36,686 bases of DNA from Anaerolineales bacterium (GTDB taxonomy: Bacteria; Chloroflexota; Anaerolineae; Anaerolineales; Villigracilaceae), in the NCBI GenBank assembly GCA_046704785.1, contig JBJKRF010000136.1, positions 1-36,686 of the forward strand. The letters run 5' to 3'. Positions 816 to 22,776 of the stretch are shown in pieces (position 1 is the first letter of the stretch; each line of letters begins with the position of its first letter). A program made the translations under genes and the position numbers. The notes beneath the pieces are model-generated. The model was not told the DNA's origin and did not search any database. It saw only the letters and a program-made list of their open reading frames with translations.

Positions 816-3026
816 ATGAAAGCGATTAAACGGTTCTTCTTTTTACTGGTTATCGTTTCGCTGTATTGTGCATGGGCGGCCTCACCGGTTTCCGCCCATG
901 CACTTTTATTGCGTTCCAACCCCGCCGCCAACGCCGACCTGCCCAAAGCGCCCGCCCAAGTGGAACTCTACTTTAGCGAACCGGTGGAACCCGGCTTGAG
1001 TTCCATCGAAGTCTACGACTCGAAAGGCAGGCAGGTCGACCTGGGAGACGTGCGCGTCGACTCCAGCGACCCGACGCGTATGACCGTTTCGTTGGGCTCC
1101 CTGTCCGACGGCGTTTACACCGTCTCGTGGAAAGCCATCTCGTCCATCGACGGCCACCTGACGAGCGGATCATTCCCCTTCGCCATCGGCAACGTCAGCG
1201 CCGCCGCGCTGGCAGCCAACCCCGAGGAAAACGGCTCCCAGCTTCCGGCCAGCGCCCTGATCTCGAAGTGGCTGCTGCTGGCCGCGCTGGCGCTCATGGT
1301 CGGCGAAACAGCCTATATTACGCTGGTCTGGAAGCCCTCCCTGGCGCAAATCGAAGGCAAGCTTCCCGAAACCCTGATCCGCCCCACCATCTGGCCGCAA
1401 CTTTACCGCATCGCCCTGGTCGGACTGTTGGCCGGGCTGGCGCTCAACCTGCTCTCCCAGGCCGGGCAGGCCACCGGCAGCGAATTGGCCCTTCCCTGGG
1501 CCAGCGAAACCTACCGCGTCATGATCGAGACGCGCCTGGGCCTGATCTGGCTCGTGCGGCTGGCTCTGTCCCTGGCGTGTCTTTGGCTCGCGCTGGACCA
1601 CTTCGAAAAGGCCTGGAAGCGCTGGGCCGGTTTTGTCTGCGGCCTGGCGCTGCTCCTGACCATCAGCCTGACGGCTCACGCCGCCACCGAAGTGCATCCG
1701 GCCCTGCCGGTGTTCAGCGATTGGGTGCATTTGGTCGGCATGTGCTTTTGGCTTGGCGGGCTGGTCTACCTGCTGACCGGCCTGCGGGAAATCCGCAAAT
1801 TGGAGGGCGCGCAGGCCACCCGGCTGACTTCCCTGTCAACCGGTCACTTTTCGACCCTGGGGCTGGTCAGCGTCGGCGCGCTGGGCGTCACCGGGCTCTA
1901 TGCAGCCTACCTGCGCGTGGGCAGCCTGTCTGCGCTCTACACCACCATTTACGGGCAGGCCTTGCTGCTCAAACAAATCTTCGTGGGATTGCTCCTGGTT
2001 CTGGCCGCCATCAACCTGCTGGTCATCACGCCACGTCTCAAACAGGCGCGTTTGCAGGGCGCCAGCAACACGGAACTCGTGGCGCACTTTGGCAAGACCG
2101 TGCTGGCAGAAGTGATCCTGGCCGGATTACTGCTGGCCAGCGTCAGCCTGTTGACCTACCTACCGCCTGCCAAAGTCACGCCGCCCTCCTTCGACTTGAC
2201 CGGTTCCGCCACCGTGAACGACCTGCACATCGACTTGAAGATTTCGCCGGGCTTTGTGGGGCAGAACACCTTCAGCCTGCAACTGACATCTAACGGCCAG
2301 CCGGTACAGAGCGTCAAACAGGCCTTGCTGCGCTTTACGCCCGCGCAAGGGAGCGTGCCGCCCTCCGAGATCCAACTGCTCGGGCAAGGAAACGGCACCT
2401 ACAGCGTCAAGGGCAGCAACCTGAGCCTGCCGAGCAACTGGCAGGTCCAGGTCGTGGTACGGCGCGAGAACAAGTTCGACGCCTACGCCAATTTCAACTT
2501 CCAGGTGGGTGCGCCCGGAAGCAGCAGTGAGAGTCCTTATACGCCACGGGTGGCAGGCGCCTTACTGCTGCTAAACGGTTTGTTGCTGGGCCTGATATGG
2601 TTCCCCAAGCAACGGCGTTTCACGCTGCGCCTCGGCGGGGCCAGTCTGCTCGTGCTGGTGCTGCTGGCCGAAGGCATCTTCGTGGTCACCCGCCCCATTT
2701 CCAACATCAACAGCCAAGCCAATCCCATCCCACCCGACGCCCAATCCATCGCGGCGGGCAAAGCCATCTACGAGACTCACTGCGTGGAATGCCACGGAAA
2801 AGACGGAAAAGGCGACGGGCCGCTCGGCAAGACGTTGATCCCGCGCCCGGCAGACTTCACGGTACACGCCGTCCCCGGCGTGCACACCGACGCGCAGCTC
2901 TTCGAATGGATCACCAACGGCTTCCCCGGTTCGGCCATGCCCGCCTGGAAATCGAAGCTTTCAGACACGGACCGCTGGGACCTGGTCAACTTCCTGCGCA
3001 CATTTGCGCCACAACAATCTCCTTAA
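816..3026 (+). CDS. CopC-CopD fusion copper transporter (YcnJ-like) with extra YtkA-like and C-terminal class-I cytochrome c domains
   Basis: The N-terminal CopC domain matches the family motif (mature HALLLRSNPAANA...VELYFSEPVEP). A polytopic CopD-like TM core follows. An extracytoplasmic beta domain (DLHIDLKISPGF...TFSLQL) is followed by two more TM helices. The C-terminus carries CVECHG (CxxCH heme motif) and a GSAMPAW Met-ligand region. Confidence 0.8.
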   Translation: MKAIKRFFFLLVIVSLYCAWAASPVSAHALLLRSNPAANADLPKAPAQVELYFSEPVEPGLSSIEVYDSKGRQVDLGDVRVDSSDPTRMTVSLGSLSDGVYTVSWKAISSIDGHLTSGSFPFAIGNVSAAALAANPEENGSQLPASALISKWLLLAALALMVGETAYITLVWKPSLAQIEGKLPETLIRPTIWPQLYRIALVGLLAGLALNLLSQAGQATGSELALPWASETYRVMIETRLGLIWLVRLALSLACLWLALDHFEKAWKRWAGFVCGLALLLTISLTAHAATEVHPALPVFSDWVHLVGMCFWLGGLVYLLTGLREIRKLEGAQATRLTSLSTGHFSTLGLVSVGALGVTGLYAAYLRVGSLSALYTTIYGQALLLKQIFVGLLLVLAAINLLVITPRLKQARLQGASNTELVAHFGKTVLAEVILAGLLLASVSLLTYLPPAKVTPPSFDLTGSATVNDLHIDLKISPGFVGQNTFSLQLTSNGQPVQSVKQALLRFTPAQGSVPPSEIQLLGQGNGTYSVKGSNLSLPSNWQVQVVVRRENKFDAYANFNFQVGAPGSSSESPYTPRVAGALLLLNGLLLGLIWFPKQRRFTLRLGGASLLVLVLLAEGIFVVTRPISNINSQANPIPPDAQSIAAGKAIYETHCVECHGKDGKGDGPLGKTLIPRPADFTVHAVPGVHTDAQLFEWITNGFPGSAMPAWKSKLSDTDRWDLVNFLRTFAPQQSP

Positions 3027-9929: not shown

Positions 9930-9966
9930 GGGGGTGTGCGGGCGGCTTTACCACCCGCACACCCCC
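9930..9966. repeat. G-rich extragenic palindrome (GGGGGTGTGCGGG-11 nt-CCCGCACACCCCC)
   Basis: 13-bp perfect stem in the divergent intergenic region between 9864 and 10222. It shares a GGGGTGTG-GGCGG core with the element at 33457-33506. Confidence 0.5.
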
Positions 9967-10221
9967 ATCCTCCCCCAAGTTGTTGAGAAGATACCTTTAT
10001 TGTACATCGGGCGTAACCCAATGAGATTAAAGGTTCCCGAAGAATTGTGCCAAAGCCAGAGAGGTGGAAATGACGCCGATTTCCAAAGACCCGCCAAATT
10101 CGTCACGCCACAGGATGAAATATTATCTATAATAGTTACAATTTTCCCGTCTGTACGAGCCGGCTGCATCGCGCTGACTTCAGAAAGTCATTATCCTGCG
10201 TCCATTGATCGAGGTGTTTCC

Positions 10222-12111
10222 ATGCAAAAACCGTCCTGGCAAGAGCGCCTACGCTATCGTATCGACAACGCTTTATCGCGCGGTACGCTCATTCTGATCG
10301 GTTGGCTGGCGCTGGCAACGCTGGTCATGGTTGTGGCAATGACGGTCCTTTCGTTATTGCCCGGCGTGCGCCCCGAGAACACCGGCCTGAAAGAAATCTT
10401 CTGGGATGTCCTGTTCCAGGCCCTGACGCCGAATCCTTTCGACGTAACCGCCCCGCTGCTTTTTCTGTTGGTGATGTTGGTGGTCACACTTGGCAGCCTG
10501 TTCATGGTCAGTATCCTGATCGGTATCCTGACCACCGGCATCGAAAACCGCATCGAACTATTACGCCGGGGTCGCTCACGGGTGCTGGAAAAAGAACACA
10601 CGATTATTTTGGGCTGGTCACACCAGGTCTATACCGTCATTTCGGAGTTGGTCATCGCCAACGAAAACCGCAAACAGGGCGCTGTGATCGCCATCCTGGC
10701 AGACAAAGACAAGGTCGAGATGGAAACCGCCATCCGCGAGCGCATCCCGAACACCGAGAACACGCACGTTATCTGCCGCTCGGGCAGCCCCATCGACCCG
10801 ACCGACCTGGAAATCGTCAGCCCGCACACCGCCCGTTCGATTATCATCCTGCCACCCGAAAGCGACGATCCCGACACCTTCGTCATCAAAACGATACTGG
10901 CAATCACCAACAATCCACATCGGCGCGCTGCGCCCTATCACATCATCACCCAGATTCGTGACGAGAACGACATCGAGGTCGTGCAAATGCTCGCCACCCG
11001 AGACGATATTCATGCCATACAGGCCAGTGATGTGATCGCCCGCGTCACCGCGCAAACATCCCGCCAGTCTGGGCTCTCCATGGTCTACACCGAATTGCTG
11101 AACTTCAGCGGCGATGAGATTTATTTCAAAGAGGAACCTACGCTTTCCGGCAAGACCTTCGGCGACGCACTCTTTGCCTATGAAGACTCGGCCGTTGTCG
11201 GGTTACGCTTCGCCAACGGCACGATCAAACTCAACCCGCCCATGGACACGCGCCTCGCGCCGGGCGACAAGGTGATCGCCATCTCTGCCGACGACGATAC
11301 CGTAATCCTGTCGGGACGGACGACGTTTCCCGTGCACAGCGAGCTGATTCGTCTCAACAGCAAACCCGAAGCGCAACAACCCGAACGCGGATTGATCGTC
11401 AACTGGAACCGCGCCGCAAGCACCATCGTCAACGAACTGGACTACTATGTCGCCAAAGGCTCCTCGTTGACCGTCTTCGCAGACGACTGGTTCGAAAGCG
11501 CCGTGCACGCCTGCAACGGTCTCAAACGCCAAAAACTTAGCTTCCATGCCGGCAATACAACCGACCGCCGCACCATCGACGAACTGGACTTCGAGGAATA
11601 TGACCACGTCATCGTACTGGCAGACACAACTCGCTCCGTACAGGAGGCCGATGCGCGCGCGCTCATCACTTTGCTGCACCTGCGCGACATCGCCGACCAT
11701 CTATCTGCGCCCTTCTCCATTGTCAGTGAGATGCTCGACCTGCGCAACCGCGCACTGGCCGAGGTGGCCCGCGTGGACGATTTCATCGTCAGCGATCATC
11801 TAATCAGCTTGATGATGTCGCAGCTCTCCGAAAACGGGGAACTCTACGAGGTGTTTAACGACCTGTTCGACCCGGAAGGATCGGAAATCTACCTGAAGCC
11901 CATCAGCGATTACGCTGTGACCGGCCAACCCGTTAATTTCTACACGTTGCTCGAATCGGCCCGACGCCGTGGCGAGGTGGCTATTGGCTACCGTCTGCTG
12001 GATAACTCTCATAATTTAGAGCAATCGTATGGTGTATGCACCAACCCCAAAAAGATGAACGAAATCACTTTCAAGGAACACGATAAGATCATCGTCCTGG
12101 CAGAACAATGA
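10222..12111 (+). CDS. CASTOR/POLLUX-related putative ion channel with tandem RCK (TrkA-N-like) domains
   Basis: ATG 10222 with GAGGTG RBS. N-terminal LRYRIDNALSRG is followed by 3 TM helices and a pore-like segment, then a large cytoplasmic region of the NAD-binding/RCK fold. Supplied ORF 9934 extends upstream with an alternative start across a hairpin and is not credible. Confidence 0.6.
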   Translation: MQKPSWQERLRYRIDNALSRGTLILIGWLALATLVMVVAMTVLSLLPGVRPENTGLKEIFWDVLFQALTPNPFDVTAPLLFLLVMLVVTLGSLFMVSILIGILTTGIENRIELLRRGRSRVLEKEHTIILGWSHQVYTVISELVIANENRKQGAVIAILADKDKVEMETAIRERIPNTENTHVICRSGSPIDPTDLEIVSPHTARSIIILPPESDDPDTFVIKTILAITNNPHRRAAPYHIITQIRDENDIEVVQMLATRDDIHAIQASDVIARVTAQTSRQSGLSMVYTELLNFSGDEIYFKEEPTLSGKTFGDALFAYEDSAVVGLRFANGTIKLNPPMDTRLAPGDKVIAISADDDTVILSGRTTFPVHSELIRLNSKPEAQQPERGLIVNWNRAASTIVNELDYYVAKGSSLTVFADDWFESAVHACNGLKRQKLSFHAGNTTDRRTIDELDFEEYDHVIVLADTTRSVQEADARALITLLHLRDIADHLSAPFSIVSEMLDLRNRALAEVARVDDFIVSDHLISLMMSQLSENGELYEVFNDLFDPEGSEIYLKPISDYAVTGQPVNFYTLLESARRRGEVAIGYRLLDNSHNLEQSYGVCTNPKKMNEITFKEHDKIIVLAEQ

Positions 12112-12266: not shown

Positions 12267-14273
12267 ATGATCGCAAATCTTATTTTAAGCGGGGTTGTAC
12301 TGCTGGGCATTTTATTTCTGTTTGTCTTGCTCGGCATTCGTTACATCCCCAACAACCGAGTCGGCATTATCGAAAAGCGCTGGAGTTTTAGCAAAGGCTC
12401 CGTCAAAAGCGGCTTCATCGCGCTGAACAACGAAGCCGGCTTTCAGCCCAACGTGCTGCGCGGTGGTCTGCATTATCTTATTCCAATTCAGTATGCCGTG
12501 CACATCATGCCGCTGGTGACCATTCCACAAGGCAAGATCGGATACATCTTCGCCCGCGACGGCAAACAACTGGAACAGACACAGGTGCTCGCTGCGAATG
12601 TCACCGCCAGAGATTTTCAAGATGTGGCGGGGTTCCTCAAAAACGGCGGCCAACGCGGGCCGCAACGCATGATCCTGCGTGAAGGTACCTACGCCATCAA
12701 CCTGGTGCAGTTCATCGTCATTACCGACGAACGCATCTATTCCCTGCCTTTGAATAAACAGGAATCCGACGTCATCCGTCGTATGGCGGAAGTCATCGCC
12801 GACCGAGAGGGATTCCGTCCCGTGGTCATCAAGGATGTCGACGACACCGTTGGCATTGTGACCGTTCACGACGGCTCGTCCCTGATCCAGGGAGAGATTA
12901 TCGCGCCCATCGTCGGCGACGACCGGGAACAAGCCGAAACTTATCACAACAACTTTCAAGATGCCGACCGCTTCCTGATCGCCGGCGGCTATCGCGGACG
13001 CCAGCTACAGGTACTCGTCGAAGGCACCTATTACATCAATCGCCTGTTTGCCACCATCGAGATGATCCCAAAGACGATCATCGATGTTGGCTTCGTGGGC
13101 GTCGTCGTCTCTTACACAGGCGAGATGGGCACCGACCTGTCTGGGAAAGGCTATCGCCACGGCGAACTGGTCTCCAAAGGCAAACGCGGCGTGTGGAGCG
13201 ACTCGCTTATGCCGGGCAAATATGCCTTCAACACTTACGCTGGCAAGGTCATCCCCGTTCCAACCACCAACATCATCCTGAAATGGATCCGCTCCGAGGT
13301 CGGCGCACACCGCTACGACGAGAACCTGACCGAGGTCTCCCTCATCACAAAGGACGCCTTCGAACCGTCACTGCCGCTGTCAGTTGTGGTGCATATCGAC
13401 TACCAAAAAGCGCCGCTGGTAATCCAACGCTTCGGCGATATACGGAAACTCGTCGAGCAAACGCTCGACCCTATGGTGGCGGCTTACTTTAAGAACATCG
13501 GCCAGACGCGCACCCTGATCCAACTCCTGCAGGAGCGCAGCGAGATTCAGGATCAGGCCAGCCAGGAAATGAAAGCCAGATTCGCGCATTACAACCTGGA
13601 ACTGGAAGAAGTGCTGCTGGGCACGCCAACCTCCCCCGAAGGCGACTCGCACATCGAGGCCATTCTGACCCAGTTGCGTTCGCGTCAGATCGCCGCCGAG
13701 CAGGTGGAAACCTACGACCAGCAGGAAAAAGCAGCCGTCAAAGAACGCGAACTGCGCGAGGCGGAAGCCCGCGCTCAGATGCAGACCAACATCACTCAGT
13801 CTGAGCTGAACATCGACGTCCAAACCAACCAGGGAAAAGCCGAATACCGACGTTCCATCCAGCAGGCCTCCCAGATTCGCGCACTGGCCGAAGCCGAGGC
13901 CGAAAAGGTGGCCCGCGTTGGAATCGCCCAGGCCATGGCAACGGAGGAACAGGTGCGGGCCTATGGCGGACCGCAATTCCAGGTGACCCAACAGGTGCTC
14001 AACCGCTTTGCCGAAGCCATCCAACAATCCAGGGTGGACGTGGTTCCCCGTGTTATCGTCGGCGGCGACGGCGAAAAAGGCGGCAGCACCGGCAGCATCA
14101 TGGAAGCGCTACTGGCTATGCTGTTATCTGACCGCTTCGGAGCGTTGGCCCAGCCAATGAATAAAGGAGAACGCTCGGAAGAAATCGAAGATATGCGTAA
14201 CGAAATCCGCAAGAGCTTGAAAAACAAAATGGATGACAGCAACAACGAAGGGAATGGGAAAGAAAAAGAGTAA
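12267..14273 (+). CDS. Flotillin/SPFH (band-7) family membrane protein (YqiK-like)
   Basis: TAAGGAGGA RBS. N-terminal TM helix, then an SPFH domain, then a long EA-rich coiled-coil (AEAEAEK...) characteristic of bacterial flotillins. Confidence 0.85.
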   Translation: MIANLILSGVVLLGILFLFVLLGIRYIPNNRVGIIEKRWSFSKGSVKSGFIALNNEAGFQPNVLRGGLHYLIPIQYAVHIMPLVTIPQGKIGYIFARDGKQLEQTQVLAANVTARDFQDVAGFLKNGGQRGPQRMILREGTYAINLVQFIVITDERIYSLPLNKQESDVIRRMAEVIADREGFRPVVIKDVDDTVGIVTVHDGSSLIQGEIIAPIVGDDREQAETYHNNFQDADRFLIAGGYRGRQLQVLVEGTYYINRLFATIEMIPKTIIDVGFVGVVVSYTGEMGTDLSGKGYRHGELVSKGKRGVWSDSLMPGKYAFNTYAGKVIPVPTTNIILKWIRSEVGAHRYDENLTEVSLITKDAFEPSLPLSVVVHIDYQKAPLVIQRFGDIRKLVEQTLDPMVAAYFKNIGQTRTLIQLLQERSEIQDQASQEMKARFAHYNLELEEVLLGTPTSPEGDSHIEAILTQLRSRQIAAEQVETYDQQEKAAVKERELREAEARAQMQTNITQSELNIDVQTNQGKAEYRRSIQQASQIRALAEAEAEKVARVGIAQAMATEEQVRAYGGPQFQVTQQVLNRFAEAIQQSRVDVVPRVIVGGDGEKGGSTGSIMEALLAMLLSDRFGALAQPMNKGERSEEIEDMRNEIRKSLKNKMDDSNNEGNGKEKE

Positions 14274-14294
14274 CACATCCAAGCTTTACAAAAA

Positions 14295-14322
14295 GGACGG
14301 GAAGCAGTTCCCGTCCTTTTTT
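14295..14322 (+). terminator. Rho-independent terminator after the flotillin gene
   Basis: GGACGGGAA-gcag-TTCCCGTCC followed by TTTTTT. Confidence 0.75.
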
Positions 14323-14405: not shown

Positions 14406-14411
14406 TATAAT
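14406..14411 (+). promoter_or_regulatory. TATAAT -10 element about 55 nt upstream of the KAP NTPase gene
   Basis: Consensus hexamer in the spacer directly downstream of a terminator. The -35 element is not clear. Confidence 0.35.
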
Positions 14412-14471
14412 GGCGTCGAAACCATTGCAGAATAGAACGGGGTTTTGAGAACCCACTTCACAGGAAAGTCT

Positions 14472-16676
14472 ATGAACAGATCAAAGACGTATCTCTTGGG
14501 GGACCTACCAACCGAACAAGATACCCTCGATTTCACCCCCTACGTCAACACCCTGGTGGACATCATCGAGTCGCCAACCACCAGTACGCCACTGACCATC
14601 GGAATTTTTGGAACATGGGGCTCAGGGAAAACATCGCTGATGCGCATGATCGAGAAAGGATTGCCCAAATCCTTCCGCACGACCTGGTTCAACGCCTGGG
14701 TCTACGATAAACAAGAGACTCTCTGGCGCGCCCTGCTGTTAAGCGCGCTGATCGCGCTCAAGGCAGCCGTCCCGGAGGAAAAAACCGAGGATATCGAAAA
14801 ACTGGGCGACCTGGAGACAGCCCTCTACCAGCCCGTCGACCTGGAGAAAGTCGGCGGTTTAACCGTCGAATGGGGAAAACTTGGGCGGGGGGCTGCCGAA
14901 AGCGCCGTCCAGGTTGGGCTGTCGTTCCTGCCCGGCGGCATGGTCATCACCGATCTGCTAAAAGAACTGCGCGACAAGGAGAAATCCGAGCAGGCTATTC
15001 TCAAAGTTCTATCGGCCATCCATCGCGAACGCGCCCAGGTTCACATCGAACAGGTCAAATTTCTGGAACAATTTCGAGATCACTTCAAAACACTGACCGA
15101 TGAATATCTCGTCCAAAGGAATTTGCGCCTGGTGGTTTTCGTCGACGACCTGGACCGTTGCCTGCCCGACAAAGCCGTGGAAGTGCTGGAGGCCATCAAG
15201 CTGTTTCTCGACACGCCCGGCTGCGTCTTCGTACTCGGCCTGGACCAGAACGTGATTGCGCGCGGGATCGAAATCAAATACCACGACATCAAAGGAAATG
15301 GTCATTCAGAGAATACCTCGGCAAGTTATCTGGTAGACGGAACACGCTACCTGGAAAAAATCATCCAGCTTCCTTTTCAGATTCCACCCATCGAACGCAG
15401 CGTAATGGCATCTTTCGTTAACTCGCTGGTCAGCGAGTGGCCGCACCCGGCCTGTCCCCAGGTATTTTCGGAAGGCCTGCGCGACAATCCGCGCCTGGTC
15501 AAGCGCACCGTCAACGTCTTTCTGCTGCTCTGGAACCTGGCACAGAAACGCGCCGACCAACTCCAGGGCGTTATCAAACCGGTACGATTGGCCAAACTGG
15601 TTACTATCCAAGCCATCTATCCGGAACTCTATGAGCTACTCAAGGAAACGCCGCGCTTCCTGCGCGACCTGGAAGATTATTACATGACCGAGTTTATGCC
15701 GCCGGTCAACAGTCTGGCCCACATGGGAAAGAAGCGTCACGTCGAACTTCCCCCGGCCTTGACCGCTTTTGCCACACATGAATCGGTACGACGTGTTTTG
15801 ACTCTCCACCCGCCTGAAATGCCGGACGCCAACTTTAGCGAACTCACCCCCGAAGAGATTCGCCGTTACTTCACGCTCACCCGCCGCACCGAGACGACAA
15901 AAACGAGCGCCAACGCCCCGCGACTCTTCTTCGAGCCCCAAATGATTCATATCCCTGCTGGAAGTTTCATCATGGGATCGACCGAAAAACAAACACAGGA
16001 ACTCGTCTCCAACGGCGTAGAGCCAGACCGGGCGCTGCGTGAATTTCCGCAACACATCGTGCATATTTCGGAATTCTACATCGGCAAATACCACGTGACG
16101 AACCGTGAATACCAGGCTTTCGTAATGGACACCGGTTACCAACCGCCAGCCGGTTGGGACGACCACAAATATCCTGAAGACAAAGGCGACCATCCGGTGG
16201 TCAACGTCTCTTGGGAGGCGGCCATCGAATATTGCCAGTGGCTCAGTGAACACACCGGCAAACATTACCGCCTGCCCACCGAAGCAGAATGGGAAAAAGC
16301 CGCACGCGGTACCGACGGGCGAATCTACCCCTGGGGAAACCACTTCGACCCGCAGCACTGCAATACGGCCGAATCCAAACTGGGTGACACGACCCCCGTC
16401 GGGCAGTACTCTCCCCAGGGCGATAGCCCTTATGGCTGCGCAGATCTGATCGGAAACGTCTGGGAATGGTGCGCCGACTGGTTCGACCCGGATGAGTACG
16501 ATTACCGTAAAGGGCACGTCGTCAAGGATCCCAAAGGCCCGGCCGAAGGACAATTCCGCGTCCTACGTGGCGGTTCATTCATTCTGGACCGCACCAGCGC
16601 GCGCTGCGCCGTTCGCTTCAGGATGAATCCGTATTACTGGTTTGATTTCGGCTTTCGGGTGGCGATGAGCACGTGA
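14472..16676 (+). CDS. KAP-family P-loop NTPase fused to a C-terminal FGE-sulfatase (SUMF1)-like domain
   Basis: Walker A GTWGSGKTS is present. The KAP hallmark FNAWVYD lies just downstream. Walker B LVVFVDDLDRC and LEAIKLFLD follow. The C-terminal about 235 aa show the FGE-domain signatures IPAGSFIMGS, VSWEAAIEYCQWL, RLPTEAEWEKAARG, YPWGN, GNVWEW, RGGSF and GFRVA. Supplied ORF 14445 starts at TTG. ATG 14472 after GGAAAG was chosen. Confidence 0.8.
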   Translation: MNRSKTYLLGDLPTEQDTLDFTPYVNTLVDIIESPTTSTPLTIGIFGTWGSGKTSLMRMIEKGLPKSFRTTWFNAWVYDKQETLWRALLLSALIALKAAVPEEKTEDIEKLGDLETALYQPVDLEKVGGLTVEWGKLGRGAAESAVQVGLSFLPGGMVITDLLKELRDKEKSEQAILKVLSAIHRERAQVHIEQVKFLEQFRDHFKTLTDEYLVQRNLRLVVFVDDLDRCLPDKAVEVLEAIKLFLDTPGCVFVLGLDQNVIARGIEIKYHDIKGNGHSENTSASYLVDGTRYLEKIIQLPFQIPPIERSVMASFVNSLVSEWPHPACPQVFSEGLRDNPRLVKRTVNVFLLLWNLAQKRADQLQGVIKPVRLAKLVTIQAIYPELYELLKETPRFLRDLEDYYMTEFMPPVNSLAHMGKKRHVELPPALTAFATHESVRRVLTLHPPEMPDANFSELTPEEIRRYFTLTRRTETTKTSANAPRLFFEPQMIHIPAGSFIMGSTEKQTQELVSNGVEPDRALREFPQHIVHISEFYIGKYHVTNREYQAFVMDTGYQPPAGWDDHKYPEDKGDHPVVNVSWEAAIEYCQWLSEHTGKHYRLPTEAEWEKAARGTDGRIYPWGNHFDPQHCNTAESKLGDTTPVGQYSPQGDSPYGCADLIGNVWEWCADWFDPDEYDYRKGHVVKDPKGPAEGQFRVLRGGSFILDRTSARCAVRFRMNPYYWFDFGFRVAMST

Positions 16677-16690
16677 GTTGTGATTCCCCA

Positions 16691-17329
16691 TCAATGCTCA
16701 TTTTTGTGCCCGGAAATCAAGCGCACGGCACGTTGCCAGGAATCCCGCTCGCCGCCAAACGGCTCGCCCGAAAACTGGTAGTCGTTCTTACGGATGAACT
16801 CTGCCAGCTCTACACGCAGGCTTTTCATACTCTCCATTTGGATCGCCAGGAGAGCGTTACGCTTGTCGGCCTGGGGCAAATGCTCCAACACCTGTCGCAA
16901 GTGGGGAATGCACAATCCCTGTGATGTCTCCAGCGCCGCTATGAATTCTTCGTCCGGCAAATGCTTGGAGAACTCGACCCAGATGCGTCTCCGCAGGCTA
17001 TCCAGATGGGCACAGGCCGGGCATACTTCACGCGGCGCAGCAACCTTTTGCTGCTGTTCCAATTGGGTAAGGGTCACACGCAACAAGTCTTCATAAAGGA
17101 TCGCCAATCCAAAAGCATTCCCAATCATCCCATCCATGGCCAGGCGCGCATGTTCAGGACAAAATCCCAGGCTGGCGCGGATATGCCGACGCAACGCGTA
17201 ATCGTTGACTTGCTCGTAAAACAAATGATCCAGGTAGCGCCGCACCGAGGCCTGTTCCATCTGGCAGACGGGACAACCGGGCTGGCGGCAGGTCTCGAGC
17301 AACGCATCATACGTGGCAGAATGGGTCAT
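16691..17329 (-). CDS. Cys-rich protein with an internally duplicated CPxC...C(P/I)xH module (putative tandem Zn-ribbon; no confident family)
   Basis: Two copies of the pattern are visible: CPVC-26 aa-FCPEH and CPAC-31 aa-LCIPH. Its ATG overlaps the TGA of the upstream methyltransferase as ATGA. It may match an uncharacterised DUF, which I cannot verify. Confidence 0.6.
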   Translation of the reverse strand: MTHSATYDALLETCRQPGCPVCQMEQASVRRYLDHLFYEQVNDYALRRHIRASLGFCPEHARLAMDGMIGNAFGLAILYEDLLRVTLTQLEQQQKVAAPREVCPACAHLDSLRRRIWVEFSKHLPDEEFIAALETSQGLCIPHLRQVLEHLPQADKRNALLAIQMESMKSLRVELAEFIRKNDYQFSGEPFGGERDSWQRAVRLISGHKNEH

Positions 17330-18564
17330 GTTGGCCTCGTAAAGAGGCTGATGCTCTCGATGTGATAGGTCTGCGGGAAAAGGTCGAACGGTGTGACTTG
17401 TTCCAATCGGTAACCGCCGTCCAGCAAGCGGCGCGCATCGCGCGCCAGGGTGGCTGGGTCGCAGGAAACGTAGACCAGGCGACCCGCCGCGAGGGTCAGG
17501 AGCGCTGCGAGGGCTTTCTTCTCCAACCCGGCGCGCGGTGGATCGACGAGCACCGCGTCTGGTCGGACGCCCAGGCTGGGCAGGACGACCTCTGCCGCTG
17601 CTTCGTAAAGCTCCACATTCTCGAATTCATCCAGGTTGACGGCAAAATCCTCGCAGGCCGACGGCGAGGCTTCCACCCCGATCAGGCGCCGATAGCGTGG
17701 GGCCAGAAAAGCCGAGAATAAACCGACTCCGCAATAGACTTCCAGAATTGTGGACGAAGGAGGCACTTCGTCGAACAGGGATAAGACGTGCTCGACCATT
17801 TTGGCCGCCATGGCAGTGTTTACCTGAAAGAAGGAGGCGGCCGAAACACAAAACCGGCGGCCTAGCACCTCAAAGAGCAGGTCGGGCTCTCCGGCCAATG
17901 TGACGGCGTCGTCGCCTGCCAAGTGCACAACCGAAATCCCGGATTCGAGTTCCAGGGCGGGTACGTCGGCGGATTGCGACTCGAGCATCAGCATCAATTC
18001 ATCGTCCACGCCGCAGCGCAACGGGACCCGTTCAAGGGGCGTTCCGGGCTCGAATTCGAGGCGCGGCCACAGGGCATCGAGTGCAGCAACAGGCAGGTGA
18101 CATTCGTCGACCGGCAGAACAGCCTGCGGGTGGCCCGCTGCGGCGAATCCTAAACGGCCAGAGTCCGTTAGATGAAATTGAACGTGGTTACGATAATTCC
18201 ATTCCACGGGCGAGGGGACGATGTCGCGCATGGGTGGTTCCGTAATGCGCCCAATGCGCGTCAACTGTTCGCGCAGAATGTCCATTTTGGCCGTCAACTG
18301 GGCTGCATACGGCAGGTGCTGGTAGTGGCATCCACCGCAGACGCCGAAATGGGCGCAACGCGGCGTAATGCGCGCCGGCGAGGGCGTGAGCACTTCCAAC
18401 AACTCGGCGCGCGCGAAACTGCGCTTCTCCTCGCGCAGGCGCACACGCACACGTTCCCCTGGCAGCGCAAAAGGCACAAAGACCGCGCGGCCATCGTCCA
18501 AGCGTCCCATGGAGTCGCCGCCGTAGGTCAGCGTGGTAGGAACAATTTCAACCGTTTTGTCCAT
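17326..18564 (-). CDS. TRAM-domain class I SAM-dependent RNA (uracil-5)-methyltransferase, RlmD/RumA-like
   Basis: N-terminal TRAM fold, then the Fe-S motif C-x5-C-x2-C (CAHFGVCGGCHYQH), then FFQVN and VLVDPPRAG methyltransferase motifs and a C-terminal DLFPQTYHIESI. The start is ambiguous. ATG 18564 (MDKTV) is preferred over GTG 18600, which would place a stable hairpin inside the coding start. Neither has a clear SD. Confidence 0.8.
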   Translation of the reverse strand: MDKTVEIVPTTLTYGGDSMGRLDDGRAVFVPFALPGERVRVRLREEKRSFARAELLEVLTPSPARITPRCAHFGVCGGCHYQHLPYAAQLTAKMDILREQLTRIGRITEPPMRDIVPSPVEWNYRNHVQFHLTDSGRLGFAAAGHPQAVLPVDECHLPVAALDALWPRLEFEPGTPLERVPLRCGVDDELMLMLESQSADVPALELESGISVVHLAGDDAVTLAGEPDLLFEVLGRRFCVSAASFFQVNTAMAAKMVEHVLSLFDEVPPSSTILEVYCGVGLFSAFLAPRYRRLIGVEASPSACEDFAVNLDEFENVELYEAAAEVVLPSLGVRPDAVLVDPPRAGLEKKALAALLTLAAGRLVYVSCDPATLARDARRLLDGGYRLEQVTPFDLFPQTYHIESISLFTRPT

Positions 18565-18574
18565 AAAAGCCAAG

Positions 18575-18598
18575 GGGGACACACGGTTGTGTGTCCCC
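18575..18598. repeat. GC-rich hairpin GGGGACACAC-ggtt-GTGTGTCCCC
   Basis: 10-bp perfect stem between the small membrane-protein gene and the methyltransferase start. It is alternating Pu/Py (AC)n/(GT)n flanked by G4/C4. Confidence 0.5.
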
Positions 18599-18664
18599 AC
18601 AATTTTCTGACGAAGGTCACTTATGATGCTCTAGGATTTCCCGTGGTGATAAAAAGAGCCCCAC

Positions 18665-21387: not shown

Positions 21388-21888
21388 ATGGCGCACTTCC
21401 TCGTCACACAATTGCGCTTCGCGCGCAGCGAATTCGTCCGTGGATTGGAAGGCATCTCTGCGGAGGACGCCGTCAAACGTCTCATGCCGATGAACTGCAT
21501 CAGTTGGATGATCGGCCATCTTGCCGACCAGGAGCAACGCTACTGGGTGCTGCATGCGCAGGGCCATTTGGTCGTTGCCGGGCTGAATGAACGGGTGGGA
21601 AACGGCCAACCCGCCAGCACGCCACCTTTGGACGAAATGTGGAGCGTCTGGAAGGCGATCACTGCCGCCGCCGATGAATATCTCGACACATTGACCTCGG
21701 AGATTCTGGCGAACACGCATCAACTGCGCGACAGCAAGCCCATGGACGACAATCTAGGCACACTGCTTCTCCGTAATATTTACCATTATTGGGTTCACAC
21801 AGGCGAGGTCTCGGCCATCCGCCAGATGCTCAACCACCCACAGCGGCCTGAATTCGTCGGTGACATGAGCGCAGTTAATTACCAGTGA
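21388..21888 (+). CDS. DinB-family (DinB_2/YfiT-like four-helix bundle) protein
   Basis: Length about 166 aa. His-containing motifs (IGHLADQE and [11 protein letters not shown]) are typical of DinB_2. The start is 3 nt after the ppgK stop. Confidence 0.65.
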
Positions 21889-22074: not shown

Positions 22075-22776
22075 ATGAACTTCCGGGTTGGAATCGAGAA
22101 TAATAACGAGGGCATCCGCTCCATTGCCTGGGCATTGGAGCATCCCGGCTGTTACGCCTACGGCAAGAACGCCGACGAGGCCTTGAACCGCTTGCCGGCT
22201 GCCATCCGCGCCTATTCGGATTGGATCAACCATCACGGACCCTCCTGGCTGCGGGCGGAGCACATCGAACTGAATGTTGAGAGCGTGTGGGACGATTACT
22301 ACGTCAACGATAAGTTGGAACGCGTCCCGGCCAGCGAGGACGCGCTGACGGTTGAGTCCTGGTTCCAGTATGACTGGAAACCGTTGACCGCAGATGAGAT
22401 CGAGCGCGGCCTGAAATTGCTCGAATGGAGCCGGGCCAGCCTGCTCAAATTGACCAGCGACTTGAGCCCGGAAAAGCTCGACCAGCGTTATCCAAACGAA
22501 CGCTGGAGCATCAGCGGTATTCTGCGTCACCTGGGCGGGGCCGAATGGTGGTACATGGACGGCATTGGCAAGGCATTCCCGAAGAGCCGCCTGCCCAAAG
22601 AGACCATGAAACGTCTGGAAAAAGTTCGTGCGGCGTTAATCGGGGTGCTGCCCAAACTGGAAGGCGTCAAACTGGTTAGCGGCAGGGATGGCGAATTCTG
22701 GAGTCCGCGTAAAATGCTGCGCCGCGCGCTGTGGCACGAACGCGACCACACCGACCACATCCGCAAATTGTTGTAG
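22075..22776 (+). CDS. Fusion protein: N-terminal HicB-like/UPF0150 domain plus C-terminal DinB_2-like domain
   Basis: N-terminal WALEHPGCYAYGKNADEALNRLPAAIRAY matches the HicB-like antitoxin-fold signature (PGC..G.T.EEA). C-terminal LRHLGGAEWWY...WHERDHTDHIRKL is DinB-like. No HicA-like ORF is adjacent. Confidence 0.6.
   Translation: MNFRVGIENNNEGIRSIAWALEHPGCYAYGKNADEALNRLPAAIRAYSDWINHHGPSWLRAEHIELNVESVWDDYYVNDKLERVPASEDALTVESWFQYDWKPLTADEIERGLKLLEWSRASLLKLTSDLSPEKLDQRYPNERWSISGILRHLGGAEWWYMDGIGKAFPKSRLPKETMKRLEKVRAALIGVLPKLEGVKLVSGRDGEFWSPRKMLRRALWHERDHTDHIRKLL

Follow-up and report, generated by a model that had tools for sequence, protein, structure and literature searches.

What does a protein do that joins a KAP-family P-loop NTPase to a domain with the fold of the formylglycine-generating enzyme (FGE), and is its second half an enzyme at all? 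The question is raised by a gene at positions 14472–16676 (+) of a 36,686-nucleotide stretch of DNA from an Anaerolineales bacterium (contig JBJKRF010000136.1), which is referred to here as the window. An earlier, sequence-only reading described the product as a KAP NTPase fused to a degenerate FGE-like domain and knew of no such architecture. The analysis finds instead a common family whose C-terminal tail is the target of diversity-generating retroelements (DGRs), and the distinguishing feature of the window's copy is that it belongs to a clade in which the tail is fixed and the gene is syntenic and part of the core genome. The protein is probably a fixed-specificity KAP–lectin sensor, descended from a hypervariable ATPase-coupled receptor.

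The two domains that had been read from the translation are recovered by Pfam. The KAP-family P-loop NTPase core, of the family defined by Pfam PF07693 and Aravind et al. 2004, covers residues 21–323 (14532..15440, +; E 1.9e-37, 129.5 bits against a cutoff of 20). The FGE-sulfatase match (PF03781), a non-catalytic C-type-lectin-fold domain, covers residues 489–731 (15936..16664, +) and profile positions 3–254 of 255 (E 4.7e-57, 194 bits against a cutoff of 23.3). All of the quoted motifs are present in the translation and include, in the FGE domain, IPAGSFIMGS, RLPTEAEWE, YPWGN, GNVWEW, RGGSF and ILDRTSARCAVRFR.

The KAP–FGE family is a genuine DGR target, and the C-terminal ~30 residues are its variable region (VR). 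In an alignment of 120 sequences, an invariant scaffold within the last ~32 residues (R699, G700, G701, S702, F703, A710, R711, C712, A713, R715, P720, G727, F728, R729 and V730) is interleaved with 16 columns of 3.0–3.7 bits entropy. The residues found in the hypervariable columns are the set that can be reached from AAC (N, D, Y, S, F, L, I, V, G, R, H, C, T and A). Column 717 is occupied by R, W or G, as expected from AGG, and the same three residues lead column 708; the spectrum of the 16 columns is of the NNC/NGG type. A second copy of the 3' end of the gene was sought in 45 full-length loci, and eight of these carry a template repeat (TR) of 82–136 nt. The mismatches fall almost only at adenines of the AAC-rich second copy: 12 of 12 in L004, 15 of 16 in L014, 15 of 15 in L021, 20 of 21 in L032, 14 of 14 in L036, 18 of 18 in L045, 13 of 14 in L053 and 18 of 21 in L057. 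Genes with Pfam matches to RVT_1, the reverse transcriptase (RT), and to bAvd lie directly downstream of the KAP–FGE gene in L021 and L036; in L057, RVT_1 is matched but no bAvd was confirmed by Pfam. The tails also vary between otherwise similar proteins. Members of two clusters formed at 90% identity (P0045 and P0109) have unrelated tails, and where pairs are >90% identical in the rest of the protein, their identity over the 16 tail positions is only 24%.

Two observations on the retroelement loci themselves are recorded here. The RT downstream of the KAP–FGE gene in L057 (4714–5765) seems to be split into open reading frames (ORFs) of 242 and 147 residues with a partial RVT_1 match, which could represent a recently decayed DGR or an assembly frameshift. 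Six loci (L006, L010, L022, L032, L045 and L053) hold a second ~240–250-nt copy of the gene's 3' region with 71–92% identity in the same locus, and the copy in L032 (16004–16159) differs from the VR at mixed bases, not at adenines. Loci with such second copies look like cases of two target genes per one DGR, as reported for DGR clade 5D.

In the window's protein, the former VR comprises residues 699–730 (RGGSFILDRTSARCAVRFRMNPYYWFDFGFRV; 16566..16661, +) and is the predicted ligand-binding tip. The protein groups with an Anaerolineae clade whose members P0001–P0008 and P0010 are 60–78% identical to it and share the tail pattern F[IVL][LM]....ARC[AST].R[FY]R[ML].P.[YF]W[FSY]DFGFRV. Within the clade, the 16 tail positions are 50% identical and the rest of the protein 67%, while equally diverged pairs outside the clade show only 11–15% identity at these positions (0.13, compared with 0.50 in the clade). 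Three clade clusters of 15, 4 and 4 near-identical members from different samples each keep the same tail except for N/S, A/S and Y/F swaps. The 16 tail codons of the clade include ATG, TGG, CTG, AAG, CAG and GAG, and synonymous C/T changes are seen at third positions. Adenine mutagenesis of AAC can yield neither these codons nor the C/T changes. Between L001 and L166, the 16 codons show three synonymous and no non-synonymous differences, and between L163 and L167 five and none. Together, these comparisons show a clade tail (16566–16661) that no longer diversifies but is fixed and under purifying selection.

The machinery for diversification is also missing from the surroundings of the gene. 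A sensitive blastn search with the VR, the approach that found the TRs in eight relatives, detected no repeat of 16493–16756 anywhere in the window, and no direct repeat of at least 40 nt within the window involves the 3' end of the KAP–FGE gene. The RT and Avd proteins of relatives reached a best E-value of 0.69 against the window by tblastn, and no RVT_1 or bAvd was found by Pfam among the window ORFs scanned. Altogether, no TR, RT or Avd was found on the window and nine other clade contigs, of which L166–L168 were read over 10 kb on each side of the gene and one is part of an 891-kb contig. In a neighbour-joining (NJ) tree from which the tail was left out, the clade is monophyletic and nested, and its successive outgroups include DGR-confirmed members. 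The simplest reading of these sequences would be a derived loss of diversification in which one specificity was fixed. Fixation of a formerly DGR-diversified specificity has been raised earlier for cyanobacterial DGR targets (PMC7517822). The window's copy documents this passage from retroelement diversification to germline-fixed specificity, which has rarely been shown with sequence-level controls.

The tail is also the place where a formylglycine-generating enzyme would carry its active site. The sequence-only reading had proposed that the C-terminal module binds rather than catalyses and that one of the two catalytic cysteines is retained. The loss of the catalytic residues stands, but neither catalytic cysteine has been kept. 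When the tail GGSFILDRTSA---RCAVRFR is aligned by HMMER to human FGE (2afy, which is a C341S mutant), L705 (16584–16586, +) pairs with the catalytic C336 and A710 (16599–16601, +) with the catalytic residue 341. The remaining cysteine, C712 (16605–16607, +), pairs with the non-catalytic C346. Both Cu(I)-binding catalytic cysteines of FGE (human C336 and C341) are thus absent from the window protein. Alignments to bacterial FGEs end exactly at GGSF(I/L), before the cysteine segment, and family-wide, column 705 is hypervariable and column 710 is A, V, T or S, neither of them cysteine. Judged by this alignment, the C-terminal domain is not a formylglycine-generating enzyme because both catalytic cysteines are missing, and the loss of these residues supports the proposal that it would act as a binding module.

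The domain has the FGE-sulfatase fold. AlphaFold modelling of the protein on the basis of the family alignment reached a mean per-residue confidence (pLDDT) of 73.8, with values of 80–96 across the FGE domain. Foldseek relates the modelled C-terminal domain to human and bacterial FGE, ToxD, CalU17, PvdO and TvpA, with template modelling (TM) scores of ~0.7, and the nearest PDB sequences are ToxD (7spq), CalU17, FGEs and TvpA. With FGE (SUMF1 and bacterial FGE), the domain shares 31–33% identity, the fold (TM ~0.7) and the motifs RLPTEAEWE, GNVWEW and RGGS, but differs by L705 and A710 in place of the catalytic cysteines and by the lack of a sulfatase context. ToxD (7spq) and CalU17 (7ml6, 6vqp) are the closest solved sequences (E 4.5e-45 and 3.4e-32) and share the ...ARCA.R... 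tail scaffold. However, they are stand-alone FGE-fold proteins of toxoflavin and calicheamicin biosynthesis with no NTPase and no DGR link. In TvpA (PDB 2y3c; E 2.8e-17 by sequence, 3.3e-12 by fold) and Bordetella phage Mtd, the same FGE/C-type-lectin fold presents a C-terminal variable region as the ligand-binding surface, and the same scaffold logic is followed, with invariant residues interleaved with AAC-encoded variable ones. These are surface or tail-fibre proteins without an NTPase, whereas the window protein has a KAP ATPase.

The KAP half is conserved in its nucleotide-binding motifs. In the Walker A motif GTWGSGKTS (residues 47–55; 14610..14636, +), G47, W49, G50, G52, K53 and T54 are invariant among 36 homologues, and in the Walker B motif VVFVDDLDRC (residues 221–230; 15132..15161, +), F223 and D225 to C230 are invariant in the same set. 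Block entropies in the 120-sequence alignment are 0.25 bits for Walker A and 0.24 bits for Walker B, both among the lowest of all blocks. The KAP motif WFNAWVYD is present in the translation at residues 72–79. Between the two Walker motifs lies a helical insert of ~135 residues (80–215; 14709..15116, +), where KAP proteins have their membrane insert. Members of the KAP family typically, although not universally, carry such transmembrane helices inside the P-loop domain. The insert of the window protein has two conserved, moderately hydrophobic segments (residues 83–101 and 145–163), and W85, R86, L90, L93 and P154 are invariant among the 36 homologues. No clear transmembrane helix is found in it by hydropathy (maximal Kyte–Doolittle 19-residue score of 1.48, threshold ~1.6), and the AlphaFold model, confident for the FGE domain, has low confidence here, with pLDDT <50 for residues 121–188. 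The protein has no signal peptide; residues 1–20 are disordered and the KAP domain begins at residue 21. A helical region and linker (residues 324–488; 15441..15935, +) connects the Pfam KAP core to the FGE domain and contains an invariant N339-P340-R341..K344-R345..N348 motif and a variable linker at residues 401–460. The sequence of the KAP half matched no PDB entry at E ≤ 0.01, which leaves the NTPase part without a structural template.

By NCBIfam and PADLOC, the N-terminal half resembles QatA, PifA and PDC-S20, with matches confined to the NTPase part (PADLOC: QatA E 8.6e-45, PifA E 4.6e-26). PifA of the F plasmid, EF_KAP and QatA of the QatABCD system all have a KAP P-loop NTPase as their N-terminal half, and in this group the activity that depends on Walker B is coupled to a C-terminal module that is itself required. 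Enterococcus is protected from phage by single-gene KAP NTPases whose C-terminal regions are diverse, and this defence needs both Walker B and the C-terminal region (PMC13552941). The window protein differs from the single-gene KAP defence proteins in that its C-terminal module is a lectin-fold domain, and from EF_KAP (PMC13552941) in its lack of clear transmembrane helices. Membership in a Qat system and orthology to PifA were considered and rejected, as only the N-terminal NTPase part matches and partner genes are absent: the QatA match reaches 181 bits against a cutoff of 600 over profile positions 3–295 of 628, and the window gene has no qatBCD neighbours. A relative with an additional N-terminal TIR domain, a canonical immune effector (P0050; 888 residues, L165 10001–12667), is 59% identical to the window protein over the shared part, and no RT lies within 10 kb of its gene. 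Together with the QatA, PifA and PDC-S20 matches, this TIR–KAP–FGE relative bears out the conflict or immunity flavour that had been attributed to the family.

The supposition that the architecture is undescribed did not survive. KAP–FGE fusions are common and have been catalogued before. In Kaur et al. 2021 (eLife, PMC8195603, section 7, Fig. 2I), the KAP ATPase is listed as a variant of the 'NTPase-FGS' counter-invader systems, and the NTPases that Dore et al. 2024 (PNAS, PMC10907252) give for targets of DGR clade 5D include the KAP NTPase. The best 120 database matches are all full-length KAP plus FGE proteins, 52–78% identical, from Anaerolineales and Chloroflexota metagenome-assembled genomes, and GTDB species-representative genomes hold 553 relatives. 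In the GTDB scan, full-length fusions occur in Anaerolineae, Chloroflexia, Caldilineaceae, Desulfobacteraceae, Brocadia, Latescibacterota, Cytophagia, Aminicenantes, SAR202 and others. A metagenome scan with the single protein returned mostly relatives of 62–68% identity or with FGE only, and not the nearest ones.

The window protein has the composition of an NTPase-FGS protein, namely an NTPase (STAND, KAP or AP-GTPase) with a C-terminal FGS in one polypeptide; in the KAP variant (PMC8195603), KAP takes the place of STAND as the P-loop NTPase that precedes the FGS. In these systems, which are enriched in filamentous or multicellular bacteria, the FGS domain is predicted to bind invader molecules, and DGR cassettes are adjacent or elsewhere in the genome. 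KAP–FGE thereby belongs to the predicted NTPase–lectin 'antigen sensor' systems of multicellular bacteria, and the antigen-sensor role of NTPase-FGS is still a hypothesis according to Dore et al. 2024 (PMC10907252). The window protein differs in three respects. Like most of the KAP–FGE family, it begins with the KAP domain and has no N-terminal EAD or effector; its clade has a fixed tail and no DGR; and its gene lies among housekeeping genes, not in multi-copy conflict loci. The clade 5D targets (PMC10907252) likewise combine a central NTPase with a single C-terminal C-type lectin domain that carries the VR, but they are actively diversified and the window's copy is not.

On this basis, the gene product would be a cytoplasmic, ATP-driven sensor of the NTPase-FGS kind. 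Its C-terminal FGE-fold domain, which lacks the copper-binding cysteine pair, would serve as the ligand-binding module, with the last ~30 residues as the contact surface. In most relatives, this surface would be continuously rewritten by a DGR (RT, bAvd and TR), and in the derived Anaerolineae clade diversification would have halted with the tip fixed as I-L-D-R-T-S ... Y-Y-W-F-D-F, in a gene that appears to be inherited vertically at one housekeeping chromosomal site. A fixed tip together with vertical inheritance would therefore mean that one constant ligand is recognised. We infer that the tip binds this ligand and that binding is coupled to the ATPase: it would switch the intact KAP P-loop NTPase through a nucleotide-dependent conformational change or oligomerisation. 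The switched NTPase may then trigger an output, most likely an anti-invader response, for which the TIR-fused relatives point to NAD+ depletion. By analogy, the family context (the TIR relative, the likeness to QatA, PifA and PDC-S20, and the Enterococcus KAP defence) points to anti-invader signalling. The fixed tip is conserved across many metagenomic relatives, which makes identification of the ligand tractable, unlike in the hypervariable relatives, and the fixed copy could help to test receptor ligands and signal transmission by the KAP ATPase.

Several points weigh against an immune sensor with a frozen tip. The immune function of any NTPase-FGS protein is a prediction, and no ligand, effector domain or partner gene has been identified for the window's copy. 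The gene lies among housekeeping genes and not in a defence island, and such stable vertical inheritance would be unusual for an immune gene. The ratio of non-synonymous to synonymous differences (pN/pS), which at the 16 codons is similar to that of the rest of the gene and speaks for a fixed tail, is a rough estimate given that distant pairs are synonymously saturated. That the clade is nested was read from an NJ tree that has no support values, and the source genome was inspected over 36.7 kb only.

Given the housekeeping location and the vertical inheritance, a domesticated regulatory role is also conceivable, perhaps together with an adjacent ion channel. In this alternative, which is possible but on the unlikely side, the protein would be a regulatory or housekeeping sensor of a constant cellular or environmental ligand rather than an anti-phage receptor, and it may pair with a Castor/Pollux-type RCK cation channel. 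In its favour are the tail, fixed and under purifying selection, and the location among core genes, which does not change over a range of proteins 60–78% identical to the window's. In clade relatives, the gene order is LOG - DnaJ - HtrA - Mo-oxidoreductase - Castor/Pollux RCK channel - KAP-FGE - RumA-type methyltransferase - sortase - SpoIIE - DUF981 - ThrRS, and the stretch from the channel through KAP–FGE and RumA to the sortase is kept on seven of the nine other clade contigs. In L001, L163, L166, L167 and L168, the channel gene precedes KAP–FGE on the same strand at a distance of 29–90 nt. Two other clade members have the KAP–FGE gene after histidine-kinase or response-regulator genes. The adjacency may reflect a functional pairing or simply synteny inherited within one lineage. 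L161 and L164 lack the channel and have a different gene upstream, no channel is linked to KAP–FGE outside the clade and its sister, and a close relative carries a TIR domain. In the window, the channel gene (9934–12111, +) is parted from the KAP–FGE gene by an SPFH/Band 7 gene and a strong terminator.

A variant in which both ideas are joined is doubtful: a DGR-diversified immune-type receptor would have been hard-wired in one Anaerolineae lineage, its tip frozen on a single optimal specificity and its gene kept in the core genome directly behind the RCK channel gene. The channel would be its output device, with ion flux gated by ATPase switching upon ligand binding. If true, this would show in nature how an adaptive-like receptor can become a germline-fixed innate sensor, and it would be a case in which a KAP NTPase works via a partner channel.

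It is quite improbable that the window gene is still an active DGR target whose TR and RT lie elsewhere in the genome, beyond the 36.7-kb contig. DGR components may sit elsewhere in a genome (Kaur et al. 2021, PMC8195603), a TR within 10 kb is also missing from many hypervariable relatives, and the source genome is represented by one contig. However, the tail is conserved both in orthologues and between near-identical members of clusters that come from different samples, close pairs differ in the 16 codons largely by synonymous changes, and several codons cannot be derived from AAC or AGG template codons. The lack of RT, Avd and TR extends over all ten clade contigs. Very improbable indeed is a genuine enzyme of the FGE/EgtB/PvdO superfamily fused to a regulatory ATPase, which would account for the strong Pfam FGE-sulfatase match, for partial NCBIfam matches to EgtB, OvoA, SenA and PvdO and for the enzyme name in source annotations, but the EgtB, OvoA and SenA matches score 84–90 bits against cutoffs of 360–420 with their best stretches in the C-terminal lectin-fold part only, the iron site of these enzymes lies in an N-terminal DinB-like domain without a counterpart in the window protein, no sulfatase genes lie near KAP–FGE in the window, both Cu-binding cysteines are gone from columns that are non-cysteine or hypervariable family-wide, and the would-be active-site segment is the DGR variable region in relatives.

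The names under which the family is deposited are affected by the same issue. For the best 120 database matches, the sources use 'formylglycine-generating enzyme...' or 'SUMF1/EgtB/PvdO family nonheme iron enzyme'. Six relatives (P0017, P0097, P0099, P0123, P0131 and P0132) carry the NCBI name 'SUMF1/EgtB/PvdO family nonheme iron enzyme', and the JGI name for these six is 'formylglycine-generating enzyme required for sulfatase activity'. For the KAP–FGE family both of them mislead, because it lacks the catalytic cysteine pair and has a DGR variable region in its place.

The start of the window gene is well defined. The enclosing ORF spans 14445–16676 (+), and the ATG at 14472 gives a KAP NTPase–FGE/C-type-lectin fusion of 734 residues plus a stop codon. 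This start is backed by the alignment of homologue N-termini, in which M1 is conserved in at least 90%, and a Shine–Dalgarno sequence AGGAAAG (14462–14468, +) can be read ahead of the ATG. Upstream, an intrinsic terminator of the SPFH/Band 7 gene (14290..14321, +; 14-bp stem with 6 GC pairs, 4-nt loop, T-run) is predicted to isolate the KAP–FGE gene transcriptionally in the window. A perfect -10 hexamer TATAAT directly preceded by TG (14406..14411, +) is a putative promoter of the gene's own, although only suggestive: a consensus scan called no full sigma-70 promoter upstream of the gene and reported no -35 match. The gene downstream is convergent. The view that the gene forms a stand-alone unit is thus in keeping with the terminator, the TATAAT and the convergent neighbour in the window, but it does not extend to most of the readable orthologues, where the channel gene lies so closely upstream. 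An antisense ORF of 305 residues (15636–16553, -) inside the coding region of the FGE domain is most likely a by-product of composition.

A survey of KAP–FGE neighbourhoods, as had been suggested, thus gave DGR loci in relatives and housekeeping synteny in the window's clade. The immediate neighbours in the window are SPFH, DUF6062, RumA and sortase genes, with no EAD or effector among them. The SPFH/Band 7 gene (12267–14273, +), whose 668-residue product ends in a long, charged, coiled-coil-like stretch, sits between the channel and KAP–FGE. It is absent from this junction in L001, L163 and L166–L168, where the junction is readable, and it looks like an insertion into the conserved synteny. 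The DUF6062 gene (16691–17329, -), which has CxxC pairs, lies between KAP–FGE and the RumA-type methyltransferase gene (17326–18600), whose start it overlaps by 4 nt; no DUF6062 gene follows KAP–FGE in L001, L083, L166, L167 and L168. A role of either gene as a system component is not supported: no SPFH gene adjoins KAP–FGE in L001, L163, L166–L168, L161 and L164, and DUF6062 is not kept behind it in five clade relatives. In L168, a PemK/RHH toxin–antitoxin pair (13432–14017, -) is inserted between RumA and sortase; the surroundings of KAP–FGE tolerate small insertions.

The wider window is core chromosome. It contains copCD–cytochrome c, a GNAT/FemAB-like gene, an aldo-keto reductase, an epimerase, azlCD and the gene row nusA-ylxR-infB-rbfA-DHH-truB-ribF. 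No mobile-element or defence-island genes were found among the window ORFs scanned, and an Rfam scan of the window gave no matches. Two further features of the window are noted. A 736-residue protein (816–3026, +) joins CopC, CopD, YtkA-like and C-terminal cytochrome c parts in a multi-domain copper-handling fusion. Two neighbouring DinB/MST-superfamily genes (21388–21888 and 22075–22776, +) adjoin a ROK-family gene.

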